Below, piece by piece: positions 22,801-24,146 of a DNA stretch of 32,097 bases. The notes below the pieces were generated by a model, which was not told the DNA's origin, made no database searches, and worked only from the letters and a program-made list of their open reading frames with translations. The position numbers and the translations under genes are program-made. Source of the stretch: Candidatus Nomurabacteria bacterium CG_4_10_14_0_2_um_filter_30_12 (GTDB lineage Bacteria > Patescibacteriota > Minisyncoccia > Phycocordibacterales > UBA9973); contig PFOY01000023.1 of NCBI GenBank assembly GCA_002792755.1, positions 1 through 32,097 on the forward strand, read 5' to 3'. Position 1 is the stretch's first letter, and each line of letters opens with the position of its first letter.

Positions 22801-23478
22801 AATCCTAGTGTAATATCTCAAACAGATGGAGAAGTTTTTGAGATAAAAGATAAAGATGGAAAAGAAAAAATAATTAAAGTACTTTCTGATGATAAAGATA
22901 GTAAAGTAAAAGAAATAGAATACCTTGTACCATTTCGCAGAATTCCTATAGTGAAAGTTGGCCAACAAGTTAAAAAAGGTGAACTTCTCACAGATGGTTC
23001 AGCAGATATAGCAGAAATATTTAAATTTGGAGGTAAAGAATTAGTTGAAGAATATATAATTAGAGAAATAAATAAAGTTTATGAGCTTCAAAGTGCTTCT
23101 ATCTCTAGAAAACATACTGAGATAATAATTCGTCAAATGTTTTCACGAAGAAAAATAAAAGATGCTGGTGAAACTAATTTCTCAGTTGGTGATATTGTAG
23201 AAAATACTGCATTTATTGAAGAAAATGAAAGAGTCACTAAGATAGGCCAACAAGAGGCGAAAGCAGAAATAATAGTGCTTGGTATTACGGAAGTTTCTCT
23301 TCGTACTAAAAGCTGGTTATCTGCTGCATCATTTCAAAATACAAATCGTGTTCTTATAGAGAATGCTATTAAGGGTGGAATTGATTCACTTCGAGGATTA
23401 AAAGAAAATGTTATTATTGGACGATTGATTCCAGCTGGAACTGGGTTTAAAAGTAGGTTTTCTTTACCAGAAGAATAG
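19876..23478 (+). CDS. rpoC: DNA-directed RNA polymerase subunit beta'
   Basis: 1200 aa with the N-terminal zinc motif [20 protein letters not shown], the catalytic [11 protein letters not shown] and the C-terminal [17 protein letters not shown]. Confidence 0.97.
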   Translation: [1200 protein letters not shown]

Positions 23479-23526
23479 AAAATAAAATCCCTTTATTAGG
23501 GATTTCTCGGAGGCCGAAGTTATTGT
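23477..23526 (-). ncRNA. candidate small RNA, left copy of the module flanking the toxin gene
   Basis: Predicted from the minus-strand promoter at 23533-23560. It contains CCTCCGAGA (23513-23505) and the hairpin AAATCCCT/aataa/AGGGATTT (23505-23485), followed by a U-rich tail. The ends are estimates. Confidence 0.3.
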
Positions 23527-23532
23527 AGATAA

Positions 23533-23560
23533 AGTATATTTGTTTAAAAATATATGTTAA
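23533..23560 (-). promoter_or_regulatory. putative minus-strand promoter TTAACA - 16 nt - TATACT overlapping the toxin start codon
   Basis: On the reverse complement, TTAACA is at 23560-23555 and TATACT at 23538-23533. Confidence 0.35.
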
Positions 23561-23970
23561 ACAAATTCGAGAAAAAATTAGAATATAAAAAAGATTTTGA
23601 CAGCTGGAATGAAAAGAAGAAAAGTATTGATCAAAAAGAAATTTCTGAGAGTATCTTTTTTAATGAACGAGAAATTTGGTGGGGATCTCTAGGTCTAAAT
23701 ATTGGTTATGAACAAGATGGGAAAAATGAAAATTTTGAACGCCCATTACTCATTGTAAGAAAATTTAATAGAAGTATTGTATGGGTATTGCCACTTACTA
23801 CCATTGCAAAAAATAATAAATTTCATTACACGTTGAAGTCGAGTGGCTCTATTGTTATACTTTCACAAATACGATTATTAAGTACTAAAAGACTCTTACG
23901 TTTAGTTGAAACAATAAATGAGAATGAGTTTAATGAAATTCTTACCAAGACTAAAGAATTATTCCCTTAA
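23554..23970 (+). CDS. PemK/MazF-family endoribonuclease toxin with an N-terminal extension, no adjacent antitoxin gene
   Basis: REIWWGSLGLNIGYEQDGKNENFERPLLIVRKFN...VLPLTT...ILSQIRLLSTKRL matches the MazF/PemK pattern (G.EQ.G.RP..V, PLT(S/T), Q.R..(D/S).(K/R)R). About 35 charged residues precede the core. Confidence 0.75.
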   Translation: MLNKFEKKLEYKKDFDSWNEKKKSIDQKEISESIFFNEREIWWGSLGLNIGYEQDGKNENFERPLLIVRKFNRSIVWVLPLTTIAKNNKFHYTLKSSGSIVILSQIRLLSTKRLLRLVETINENEFNEILTKTKELFP

Positions 23971-24024
23971 AAAGCGAAACCCCACTTTTCGGTGGGGAAT
24001 CTCGGAGGACTTACGTCCATTTAC
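23969..24024 (-). ncRNA. candidate small RNA, right copy of the module flanking the toxin gene
   Basis: It lies downstream of the minus-strand promoter at 24031-24058. It contains the GGAC/GUAA/GUCC stem-loop, CCTCCGAGA (24008-24000) and the hairpin CCCCAC/cgaaaa/GTGGGG (23997-23980), followed by TTTCGCTTTTT. The ends are estimates. Confidence 0.35.
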
Positions 24025-24030
24025 CACTAA

Positions 24031-24058
24031 AGTATAGCAAACTATAAATAAATGTCAA
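24031..24058 (-). promoter_or_regulatory. putative minus-strand promoter TTGACA - 16 nt - TATACT
   Basis: On the reverse complement, consensus TTGACA is at 24058-24053 and TATACT at 24036-24031. Confidence 0.45.
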
Positions 24059-24146
24059 GTAAATGTACAATTAACCATATGAGGTGACACTTTGATAGAA
24101 TTGGGGTGACAAAGGTTAACTATTAATATTTTAAAAGAAATAAGAA

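Follow-up and report, generated by a model that had tools for sequence, protein, structure and literature searches.

MazF and PemK are textbook toxins of type II systems, in which the toxin is neutralized by a protein, and MazF enzymes cleave short A/U-rich sites such as ACA and UACAU. ToxN, an RNase related to them in fold, is inhibited by its own RNA. The antitoxin of a type I system is an RNA that base-pairs with the toxin mRNA and so prevents its translation or hastens its decay. In convergent type I systems, examples of which are txpA/RatA and bsrG/SR4 of Bacillus subtilis and RNA I/RNA II of the par locus of plasmid pAD1, the two genes overlap at their 3' ends; type I toxins that are not small hydrophobic peptides include SymE and RalR. 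One structured RNA, the pemK motif of Rfam, we take to be a 5'-UTR element of Firmicutes pemK genes. To our knowledge, few regulatory RNAs have been described in Patescibacteria.

A type I system named CjrA/CjpT was reportedly described in 2016 by Shen et al. (Mol Microbiol 101:909). We presume that its RNA antitoxin (CjrA) and protein toxin (CjpT) are probably CJpv3 and pVir0047 (CJJ81176_pVir0047) of the Campylobacter jejuni 81-176 plasmid pVir, an equation based on the single toxin gene annotated on pVir. The pVir toxin gene occupies 30634-31038, and CJpv3 is convergent with it, ending 5 nt beyond the toxin stop. A literature search for cjpT, CJpv3 and pVir0047 found nothing further. CJpv3 is a 77-nt sRNA on the minus strand (31119 to 31043) with a very strong transcription start site (TSS), detected by Northern blotting (PMC3656092, Tables S5 and S12); our promoter scan forecast this TSS before we compared it with the published one. 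In passages that cite the system, CjrA is given as the RNA antitoxin of a type I system of strain 81-176 (PMC10470494) and cjrA as a type I antitoxin on pVir (PMC7826846).

An orphan PemK/MazF-family gene between rpoC and dnaG

The stretch of Patescibacteria DNA analyzed here (32,097 nt; hereafter, the window) encodes on its plus strand a 138-aa protein of the PemK/MazF toxin family (23554..23970; Pfam PF02452, E = 1.8e-11). A profile of this family matches MazF/EndoA structures (E about 3e-3), and the Arg of its ERP motif and the Thr of its PLT motif align with MazF-conserved positions (B. subtilis MazF/EndoA). The Pfam scan of the toxin returned the PemK match and no ToxN-family match, and PADLOC and NCBIfam yielded no match for it. 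An AlphaFold2 model computed from a 25-sequence alignment reached a pLDDT of 44.7, a quality too low for use. Homologs of the toxin numbered 199. A BLASTP alignment of pVir0047 with the window toxin covers 117 aa at 29% identity (E = 2e-16), and an N-terminal FDxWNxxKK motif is common to both.

The toxin gene lies between rpoC (19876..23478, plus strand; taken from the ORF list and Pfam-annotated as rpoC in the orthologous loci L001 and L002) and dnaG (24147..25892, plus strand; Pfam DNAG_N, Zn_ribbon_DnaG and Toprim). Promoter and terminator scans found neither a plus-strand promoter-like site nor a terminator in the rpoC-toxin gap, and no plus-strand terminator was detected by the terminator scan between the toxin gene and the right sRNA gene described below. 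No ORF for a protein antitoxin is present in the 75-nt upstream or the 176-nt downstream spacer. In 20 homologous loci whose sequences we read by eye, the upstream neighbors are unrelated housekeeping genes, among them pheS, rpoC and RadC-like, RNase III-like, FtsA-like and tRNA-synthetase-like genes (Pfam-annotated in part of the loci, the remainder judged by eye), separated from the toxin gene by gaps of 1-60 nt. Across the homologous toxin loci examined, we found no conserved protein antitoxin gene. The window also has a gene for RNase III (4153-4848), whose presence an earlier first-pass annotation of this DNA had pointed out.

Predicted small-RNA genes on both sides of the toxin gene

The first-pass annotation described, on either side of the toxin gene, a leftward module composed of a promoter, an RNA of about 50 nt and a terminator. 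Both modules lie where it had placed them, with every element that it had listed. The right promoter (24031..24058, minus strand) consists of a -35 box TTGACA (24058-24053), a 16-nt spacer and a TG-extended -10 box TATACT (24036-24031), and it scored 11/12 in our promoter scan, with the extended TG. The right sRNA gene (23969..24030, minus strand) would yield an RNA of ~56 nt, from ~24024 to ~23969, that begins with GUAAAUGG, folds into a small hairpin termed P1 (GGAC-GUAA-GUCC, 24018-24007), passes through a UCCGAG linker (24006-24001) included in the 9-mer CCTCCGAGA (24008-24000), and forms a second hairpin, the P2/terminator (CCCCAC-CGAAAA-GUGGGG, 23997-23980), followed by TTTCGCTTTTT. Its tail, UUUCGCUUUUU, overlaps the toxin stop codon (23968-23970). 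Promoter and terminator are thereby convergent with the toxin gene, with the U-tract over the toxin stop codon. The single-sequence fold of this RNA has a z of -3.5, and the copy scores 53.8 bits against a covariance model, R1, introduced below. On the conservation and covariation described below, the right module appears to be a real small-RNA gene.

On the other side, the left promoter (23533..23560, minus strand; -35 TTAACA at 23560-23555, 16 nt, -10 TATACT at 23538-23533) scored 10/12, and its -35 box lies over toxin codons 1-2. The left sRNA gene (23477..23532, minus strand) would produce an RNA of ~50 nt, from ~23526 to ~23477, carrying the same 9-mer (RNA CCUCCGAGA; 23513-23505) and a P2/terminator, GAAAUCCCU-AAUAA-AGGGAUUUU (23506-23484), followed by ATTTTCT. 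The 3' end of this RNA abuts the rpoC stop codon (23476-23478).

On both sides, promoter and U-tract are present on the minus strand only, which bears out the first-pass view that these are leftward small-RNA genes and not terminators of rpoC or the toxin. The composite TATACTTTA-N14-22-CCTCCGAGA occurs twice in the window versus 0 times in 100 shuffles; taken alone, neither TCTCGGAGG (two exact matches in the window) nor TATACTTTA (three matches versus 1.5 expected) is significant. Apart from a chance 9-mer, no tandem repeats were found in 23000-24500.

A structured RNA family linked to the toxin

R1 was built from the right copy and from modules that lie downstream of the toxin at other loci, with the left copy left out. 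Run on the 32-kb window with filters off, it made exactly two significant matches (next best E > 1), the left copy scoring 27.4 bits (E about 2e-6). Matches to R1 lie directly 3' of the toxin gene, always on the opposite strand, at 79 of 88 loci (E < 1e-4), and toxin identity in the homologous loci carrying the downstream module is 44-94%. The right-type module follows the toxin in rpoC|dnaG, pheS|pheT and many other contexts with unrelated gene neighborhoods, and in most of 84 loci both promoter boxes are found 56-110 nt past the toxin, across a spacer of varying sequence. The first-pass annotation had looked to conservation as a check on its proposal, and the module is indeed kept in orthologous as well as paralogous toxin loci. 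It had also allowed that the module might be scattered genome-wide. When 185,579 species, each represented by a single genome, were scanned for the exact pattern, three matches emerged, all of them beside the toxin; on this count, and with only two R1 matches in the window, scatter is not what we see, and we discard the idea of a generic REP element or terminator.

The family has a well-supported secondary structure. Among 76 sequences, 92.9% of helix cells are paired (slid controls, at most 69%), 10 of the 11 base pairs show double (compensatory) changes, and 107 double-change cells were observed versus 26 in shuffles. G·U pairs in the helices outnumber A·C juxtapositions by 66 to 7, which places the RNA on the minus strand. 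A plus-strand 3'-UTR element, in which these G·U pairs would be C-A mismatches, is rejected on that ground and because promoter and U-tract exist on the minus strand only.

The conserved core consists of the 5' AAAUGG (A-A/G-U-G-G), CCGAG and the tail CG. GAG is near-invariant (73-74/76), the CG of the tail, which is unpaired, is present in 69-73/76, and 71 of the 76 sequences show an A·G juxtaposition at the P2 base. It is these parts that are conserved, not the CCUCC that had been proposed as an anti-Shine-Dalgarno-like element; the U of CCUCC is found in only 46/76 sequences, and an anti-Shine-Dalgarno mimic is rejected as not conserved. A 17-codon ORF noted earlier in the right RNA fares similarly: at its start position 48 sequences have AUG, 17 have GUG and the other 11 have no start codon, and the invariant GAG falls in three frames (48/25/3). 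With neither frame nor start codon conserved, we reject a peptide-coding right RNA. Trans pairing of the sRNA with the toxin coding region, at the WWGSLG codons, was dismissed by eye because P2 sequences vary freely.

Rfam 15 gave no match at the gathering threshold for the whole window, chance-level matches only at E <= 10 for 23400-24160, and nothing meaningful for two side regions; a search for tRNA and tmRNA found none. Judged by R1 and by their shared elements, both modules appear to belong to one previously uncatalogued RNA family. The similarity of right sRNAs tracks toxin identity, and sRNA subtype co-diverges with toxin clade. The right RNA looks like the cognate, co-diverging partner of the window toxin. 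Throughout Patescibacteria, RNAs of the family constantly accompany a mobile PemK/MazF-type endoribonuclease gene that lacks a protein antitoxin.

For viral homologs of the toxin (29-37% identity), no R1-type RNA was found. More than 120 exact copies of the 16-mer GGCTTCGGCCTCCGAG occur in viral contigs, with one marginal R1 match among them (L119, E about 0.01). We rejected these as family members and regard them as chance or coding matches, given that none but the marginal L119 matches R1.

A diverged copy upstream of the toxin gene

The earlier description of two copies of one module stands as far as membership of the same RNA family is concerned, but not as regards their equivalence: the right copy appears cognate to the toxin and the left heterologous, with damaging changes. 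The nearest relatives of the left sRNA are the sRNAs of a toxin clade 50-57% identical to the window toxin. In two relatives (L090 and L092), the orthologous left copies score 57 and 43.7 bits with R1 and have a perfect TTGACA as the -35 box, and an alignment with L090-L094 shows compensatory P2 changes in the left-copy orthologs. The window copy has a mutated 5' half of P1 (AAC-UUCG-GCC versus GGC-UUCG-GCC in relatives) and a tail without the CG of the family. The left copy evolves faster than the right: between the window and L090, left copies are 81% and right copies 97% identical. It is kept only in the closest relatives, and an upstream copy is limited to one shallow lineage. Overall, the left module seems to be a diverged, heterologous-subtype member of the family, partly degraded in the window.

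Alignment of homologs shows that the start ATG of the window toxin is made up of an A plus a TGTCAA-type sequence from the -35 region of the left module, and that the ancestral start (MEYKKDFD, in 130-aa homologs) is TTA in the window.

A candidate RNA antitoxin

We infer that the right RNA is most likely an RNA antitoxin of the window toxin, standing in for the missing protein antidote. The first-pass annotation had suggested RNA regulators of the toxin, and the specific linkage of the modules to this MazF subfamily makes that the best reading of them. Each RNA (~50-56 nt) would be transcribed from a sigma-70-type promoter of its own. Its 5' end would be short and single-stranded (A-W-W-A-R-U-G-G), followed by the small P1 hairpin, a linker with the invariant CCGAG at its end, and a P2 rich in GC that doubles as an intrinsic terminator. 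No plus-strand terminator follows the toxin gene, so the toxin transcript, which in the window probably arises by read-through from rpoBC, would run across the right sRNA gene and be perfectly complementary to the right sRNA. Formation of the duplex, and then its cleavage, presumably by RNase III, would keep toxin mRNA low, as in type I pairs whose convergent genes overlap at their 3' ends. The left RNA, the second copy in the window, belongs to another subtype and has no toxin of its own; it would be complementary to the toxin 5' leader, and the -35 region of its gene now gives the toxin start codon. This copy may be decaying, or it may be a relic that has been retained as an additional antisense regulator or terminator. 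As a whole, the reading of two minus-strand RNA genes of one family, the right one an RNA antitoxin acting by antisense and the left one a toxin-less second subtype, is our tentative choice, at slightly under an even chance.

Some features count against antisense. The overlap of the sRNA with the toxin ORF is only a few nucleotides, so antisense action would depend on putative read-through of the toxin transcript. The unpaired 5' AAAUGG, CCGAG and tail CG are strongly conserved across toxins only 44% identical; cis-antisense pairing alone needs no such conservation of unpaired positions, and the pattern therefore fits protein recognition better. Furthermore, in operons such as pheS-toxin-pheT, the sRNA is also antisense to the transcript of an essential operon.

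These features bear on a type III-like alternative, in which the sRNA would act on the MazF-fold endoribonuclease itself, binding it as a pseudo-substrate or an inhibitor, perhaps after being cut by it, and mRNA pairing would be incidental. We regard this as possible but doubtful. It would account for the near-invariance of the unpaired GAG, the tail CG and the 5' A-A/G-U-G-G across toxins of 44-100% identity, for the conserved A·G juxtaposition at the P2 base, and for an sRNA that barely overlaps the toxin ORF; moreover, the 5' single strand (UACAAAU, UAUAAAU, GUAAAU) resembles the A/U-rich cleavage sites of MazF. Co-divergence of sRNA subtype and toxin clade points the same way, although simple co-inheritance predicts it too. 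However, the locus has no tandem-repeat antitoxin array, its RNA lies downstream and on the opposite strand, an architecture that we know of in no type III system, and the Campylobacter counterpart is called type I in those passages that cite it. We speculate, while thinking it rather unlikely, that the RNA is a new protein-binding antitoxin of a genuine MazF-family RNase: a single convergent sRNA with a transcription unit of its own, whose invariant internal CCGAG/CG motif and 5' A/U-rich tail would occupy the toxin's substrate groove. Such a type III-like system, built unlike ToxIN, would be Patescibacteria-wide and related to the pVir system, with orphan copies such as the left one serving as anti-addiction decoys against other-clade toxins.

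Other readings concern the position of the two copies. The RNAs might not be antitoxins at all but antisense insulators or processing signals, acting through convergent transcription and RNase III-cleavable duplexes, or bidirectional transcription blocks of a mobile cassette. Such elements would uncouple an inserted gene from the essential operons around it. The cassette is found within operons of this kind (rpoBC|dnaG-rpoD, pheS|pheT), the window RNAs fall precisely into the two spacers, the window encodes an RNase III, and the toxin-less left copy keeps its hairpin through compensatory changes. Nevertheless, we consider this improbable: at about 80 loci the RNA occupies the downstream spacer only, the upstream copy being confined to one shallow lineage; insulation has no need of conserved primary sequence; many loci lie outside operons, with the downstream gene on the other strand; and a toxin with intact catalytic residues and no antidote would not be tolerated. 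Closer to the balance, but still on its far side for us, is the view that the left copy in the window is a non-functional relic of a module that lost its toxin, and that the bracketing of the toxin gene is a historical accident. Its closest kin are sRNAs of another toxin clade, it changes faster than the right copy, and in the window two of its P1 pairs, the G of its -35 box and the CG of its tail are gone; L002, L010 and L011 have no left copy in the same rpoC|dnaG context, and another orphan copy exists in L050. Against this, three diverged lineages retain the left copy, two of them with a perfect promoter, its P2 is preserved by compensatory changes, and it supplies the toxin start codon and so cannot be lost freely.

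Comparison with known systems

The toxin subfamily has hundreds of metagenome members that appear to have no protein antidote, their sole constant partner being a structured RNA absent from Rfam. If that RNA is an antitoxin, RNA control of MazF-fold RNases would extend from a single Campylobacter plasmid to a minimal-genome superphylum, in a compact module of ~0.5 kb that inserts between essential genes, and the module would offer a clean system for setting antisense pairing against direct RNA-protein inhibition. The covariance model of the sRNA is now usable by genome annotators.

The window toxin belongs to the family of the type II MazEF/PemIK toxins, but those are encoded next to a MazE/PemI gene, which is absent at this locus, and the window toxin has an extra conserved N-terminal segment of ~30 residues relative to them. 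Like the window RNA, the pemK RNA motif is a structured RNA tied to PemK-family genes; unlike it, the motif shares the strand of the gene, precedes it and is presumably cis-regulatory. The type III systems ToxIN, CptIN and TenpIN pair an endoribonuclease of MazF/Kid-like fold with a small structured RNA, as here. Their antitoxin is a same-strand, upstream tandem repeat array, set off from the toxin gene by a terminator and processed by the toxin, whereas the window RNA is a single unit that lies downstream, on the other strand, and has a promoter and a terminator of its own.

In convergent type I systems the antitoxin RNA gene overlaps the toxin 3' end, as it does in the window, where the arrangement is conserved in about 80 loci, and duplex decay involving RNase III is the expected route, as we propose here. 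The direct repeats flanking the window toxin gene also recall those of par of pAD1. Toxins of the txpA/RatA type are small membrane peptides, in contrast to the 130-138-aa MazF-fold RNase of this family; the window toxin, a 138-aa PemK/MazF-domain protein, is not the small hydrophobic peptide of type I. The antisense RNAs of such systems, unlike the window RNA, are not known to keep their sequence where the proteins have diverged to a similar extent.

The pVir system differs from the window in several respects. CJpv3 has three predicted hairpins and no CCGAG motif, whereas the window RNA has two hairpins, and R1 found no match in the Campylobacter and Nitratiruptor loci (L095, L096 and L097). 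The pVir system is plasmid-borne and the window cassette is inserted in chromosomal housekeeping operons; the pVir toxin has its own TSS, and there is no second, upstream sRNA copy on pVir. On Campylobacter and Nitratiruptor plasmids, a small RHH-type ORF or a "transcriptional regulator" is found 3' of the toxin and could be a protein antitoxin. The geometry of the two systems is nonetheless alike: each has a convergent sRNA with its own promoter and with a 3' end only a few nucleotides from the toxin stop codon, and each lacks an upstream protein antitoxin. Seen beside these systems, the locus would best be described as a new variant of an RNA-antitoxin/MazF system.

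A MazF-type toxin gene flanked by two predicted minus-strand sRNA genes

In this window of ~30% GC, a plus-strand ORF of 138 aa (23554-23970) belonging to the PemK/MazF family (PF02452, E = 1.8e-11) separates rpoB (16678-19866) and rpoC (19876-23478) from dnaG (24147-25892) and rpoD (25941-27191), all on the plus strand. The first-pass annotation had described a minus-strand module of promoter, short RNA and terminator on either side of the toxin gene, and each of its elements was recovered in place. Of the promoter-like sites that a simple scanner found on the minus strand of this region, the right (TTGACA-16-TATACT, 24058-24031) and left (TTAACA-16-TATACT, 23560-23533) ones score best. 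An independent scan for terminator-like hairpins returned these two and no others, right (23997-23980) and left (23506-23484), each on the minus strand as proposed. The composite TATACTTTA-N14-22-CCTCCGAGA occurs twice in the window versus never in 100 shuffles; taken singly, each shared 9-mer is unremarkable in frequency. A third TATACTTTA (7843-7851, minus strand) is found near a cluster of GC-rich hairpins (CCCCCTTGTTAGGGGG, CTCCCTTATCAGGGAG, CCTCCCCTGACAAGGGGAGG; 7640-7870) located between a DUF559 endonuclease-like ORF (7141-7644) and an ORF at 7858-8130. This cluster matches neither Rfam nor R1, our covariance model of the sRNA family. The dnaG leader (24060-24146) contains a GGTGACA direct repeat (AGGTGACAC...GGGGTGACAAAGG).

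Detectable homologues of the toxin, usually 130 aa long, number 199, nearly all in Nomurabacteria, Paceibacterota and other Patescibacteria. Comparison of fetched loci (L-numbered) shows that they occupy unrelated genomic sites, including the rpoC-dnaG interval (L001, L002, L010, L090-L094) and that between pheS and pheT (L003, L005, L008). Other upstream genes, judged by eye, resemble RadC, RNase III, a type II secretion ATPase, FtsA, TyrRS, ThrRS and others, and the gap to the toxin start is often 1-60 nt; in L012 (~186-911), the toxin starts 1 nt past an ORF with an RNase III-like C-terminal sequence. No conserved MazE-like ORF accompanies the toxin in the homologous loci compared. The window toxin is recognized by neither PADLOC nor NCBIfam, and the family shares a conserved N-terminal extension, KDFDxWNxxKK. 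We expect the toxin to be an active endoribonuclease because the family profile matches MazF/EndoA structures (E about 3e-3) and, in the alignment with B. subtilis MazF, its ERP arginine and PLT threonine fall on conserved positions.

The sRNA gene is the constant neighbor of the toxin

The constant feature across toxin loci is the sequence directly after the toxin stop codon. In plus-strand order, a run rich in A leads into a GC hairpin whose sequence varies; then come (T)TCTCGG..G, a second, small hairpin, either CATTTGTA or CACTAAT, ~6 nt, AGTATA, a further 16-17 nt and TGTCAAG. In minus-strand orientation, these elements form a promoter close to consensus (TTGACA and, 16-17 nt on, TATACT or TATAAT), downstream of which lies an RNA of ~55 nt with two hairpins (P1 and P2) and a terminal U-tract. 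Most of 84 loci have both promoter boxes 56-110 nt past the region of toxin homology, with a spacer of variable sequence.

Co-occurrence with this MazF subfamily, on which the first-pass proposal depended, was borne out: in 79 of 88 loci, R1 matches directly 3' of the toxin (E < 1e-4), without exception on the strand opposite the toxin gene. Nine loci fall outside this count: in one the contig stops at the toxin, two match more weakly (E 0.003 and 0.09) and six have no match. Most of the nine carry variant two-hairpin modules with the same promoter. The variants in L067, L072, L076, L082, L087 and L089, undetected by R1 at E < 0.01, retain the promoter, a 5' ACAAAU(U/G)G and two hairpins; they lack CCGAG and the U-tract and have a CGA linker and an A-rich 3' side.

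A generic element scattered through genomes is ruled out. An exact-pattern scan of one genome per species (185,579 species) gave three matches, all directly after this toxin gene, and a filter-free R1 scan of the 32-kb window returned the right and left copies only.

Several loci depart from the simple arrangement. L050 carries an orphan sRNA copy (4793-4850, 45 bits) that follows a LexA-like ORF and has no toxin beside it, and L054 (4719-5153) has two toxin-sRNA pairs 2.2 kb apart. Many toxin ORFs (L014, L020, L022, L035, L042, L050, L054, L065, L069 and others; proteins P0085, P0086 and P0100 among them) lack the usual stop codon and remain open through the sRNA gene, yielding C-terminal tails such as ...ESPLAGAFSEAEATN that simply translate the complement of the conserved RNA (SEAEA corresponding to GGCUUCGGCCUCCGA). 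The 16-mer GGCTTCGGCCTCCGAG has >120 exact matches in IMG/VR viral contigs (L114-L193), many from sample 3300045988; R1 found no match in these loci save a marginal one (L119, E about 0.01).

Covariation defines the fold and the transcribed strand

R1 was built from an alignment of 53 non-redundant modules (A4), in which GAG is invariant, the C two positions ahead of it and a tail CG are nearly so, and UGG is conserved before the first hairpin. RNAalifold on A4 predicts a P1 of 4 bp and a P2, doubling as the terminator, of 7 bp or more. In a realignment of 76 R1 matches (A5), 92.9% of cells pair versus 78.3% in shuffles, 10 of 11 base pairs show changes on both sides, and double-change cells number 107 against 26 expected; sliding the partners by 1-3 columns leaves just 30-69% paired. 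G·U accounts for 66 non-Watson-Crick cells and A·C for 7 (32 versus 0 in P2 alone), so the folded molecule is the minus-strand transcript, and a folded plus-strand toxin 3' UTR is ruled out. The tail CG contributes its C to a pair with the final G of GAG (G-C 69, G-U 4), so that at the P2 base a conserved A faces G in 71 of 76 sequences.

The earlier interpretation survives in part. Leftward sRNA genes tied to this toxin are upheld; CCUCC is not the conserved core, and the 17-codon ORF of the right RNA is not conserved. Just 46 of 76 sequences have the U of CCUCC. At the position of the ORF's start, 48 sequences have AUG and 17 have GUG, and the other 11 have no start codon; relative to that position, the invariant GAG is in frame 0 in 48 sequences, frame 2 in 25 and frame 1 in 3.

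The left copy resembles another branch of the family

R1, trained without upstream copies, detects the left copy at 23477-23532 (minus strand, 27.4 bits, E about 2e-6). It is confined to the closest relatives, the lineage with the 138-aa toxin (L090/L091, L092-L094), where left copies are better formed (57 and 43.7 bits; P1 GGC-UUCG-GCC, a perfect TTGACA -35, 5' end ACAAUGGC). P2 varies by compensatory substitution: the window has AAATCCCT/AGGGATTT, L090 has AAATCCCC/GGGGATTT and L092 has CCTCC/GGAGG. In the window copy, the 5' half of P1 has changed from GG to AA and the -35 from G to A, the tail CG is absent, and an alternative small hairpin is predicted. Right-copy similarity tracks toxin identity, unlike that of the left copies, whose nearest kin are sRNAs of toxins that share just 50-57% identity with the window toxin. 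Divergence is also faster among left copies (81% identity between window and L090, versus 97% for right copies). The left copy is therefore a genuine family member, heterologous and toxin-less, and possibly a relic.

In this lineage, the ancestral toxin start (MEYKKDFD) now reads TTA, and the new ATG is formed by A+TGTCAA of the left promoter's -35 region. In a sister lineage with the same rpoC/toxin/dnaG context (L002, L010, L011), a different spacer of ~150 nt (L002 2849-3000; 96.7% conserved in L011) replaces the left copy. It has GC-rich segments and a minus-strand TGGTATAAT extended -10, matches nothing in Rfam, and may encode another small RNA.

Mode of action and relation to known systems

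At the level of sequence, our analysis shows two predicted sRNA genes, their strand and fold, and their linkage to a MazF-type toxin without a protein antitoxin; we infer that the right RNA is the antitoxin of the window toxin. We favor a reading in which it would act antisense on a read-through toxin transcript, since the terminator scan found no plus-strand terminator ahead of the right sRNA gene, RNase III is encoded at 4153-4848, and the convergent arrangement follows the type I pattern, the label given to a related Campylobacter system. A type III-like mechanism, in which a protein, most simply the toxin, directly recognizes the sRNA, remains a serious rival because unpaired nucleotides are strongly conserved across distant toxins, which direct protein recognition explains better. 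The sRNAs may also insulate adjacent transcription units, as a side effect at most: insulation leaves both their sequence conservation and the loci outside operons unexplained.

The closest known system belongs to distant homologues of the toxin, which tblastn located in CJIE4 prophages and on plasmids of Campylobacter, Helicobacter and Nitratiruptor. The sole annotated toxin gene of pVir (C. jejuni 81-176) is a PemK/MazF homologue (30634-31038) that has 29% identity (E = 2e-16) and the N-terminal motif in common with the window toxin. From sequence, we predicted a minus-strand promoter, TTGATT-17-TGTATAAT, with a TSS near 31119, which coincides with a very strong minus-strand TSS at 31119 in the published list (Dugar et al. 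2013, PMC3656092, Table S5). The same study reports CJpv3, a 77-nt sRNA running from 31119 to 31043 between pVir0047 and pVir0048 in '><>' orientation and seen by Northern blot (PMC3656092, Table S12). One paper citing Shen et al. 2016 (PMC10470494) describes a type I system of strain 81-176 whose RNA antitoxin is CjrA, and another citing paper places cjrA on pVir (PMC7826846); CjrA/CjpT is probably CJpv3/pVir0047. R1 detects none of the Campylobacter and Nitratiruptor RNAs, and on these plasmids the toxin gene is followed by a small ORF of RHH-like type or by a gene annotated as 'transcriptional regulator'. On the Nitratiruptor plasmid pNitYY0814_PLS (L095 1890-2164), an analogous two-hairpin module on the minus strand (promoter TTGCAT-17-TATAAT) lies after a toxin homologue of 43% identity. 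Next comes a 62-aa RHH-like ORF, which may encode a protein antitoxin, with the gene order reversed. The RNA family described here is new to Rfam, and the system, widespread in Patescibacteria, is a new form of a little-known pairing of RNA antitoxin and PemK-like toxin.
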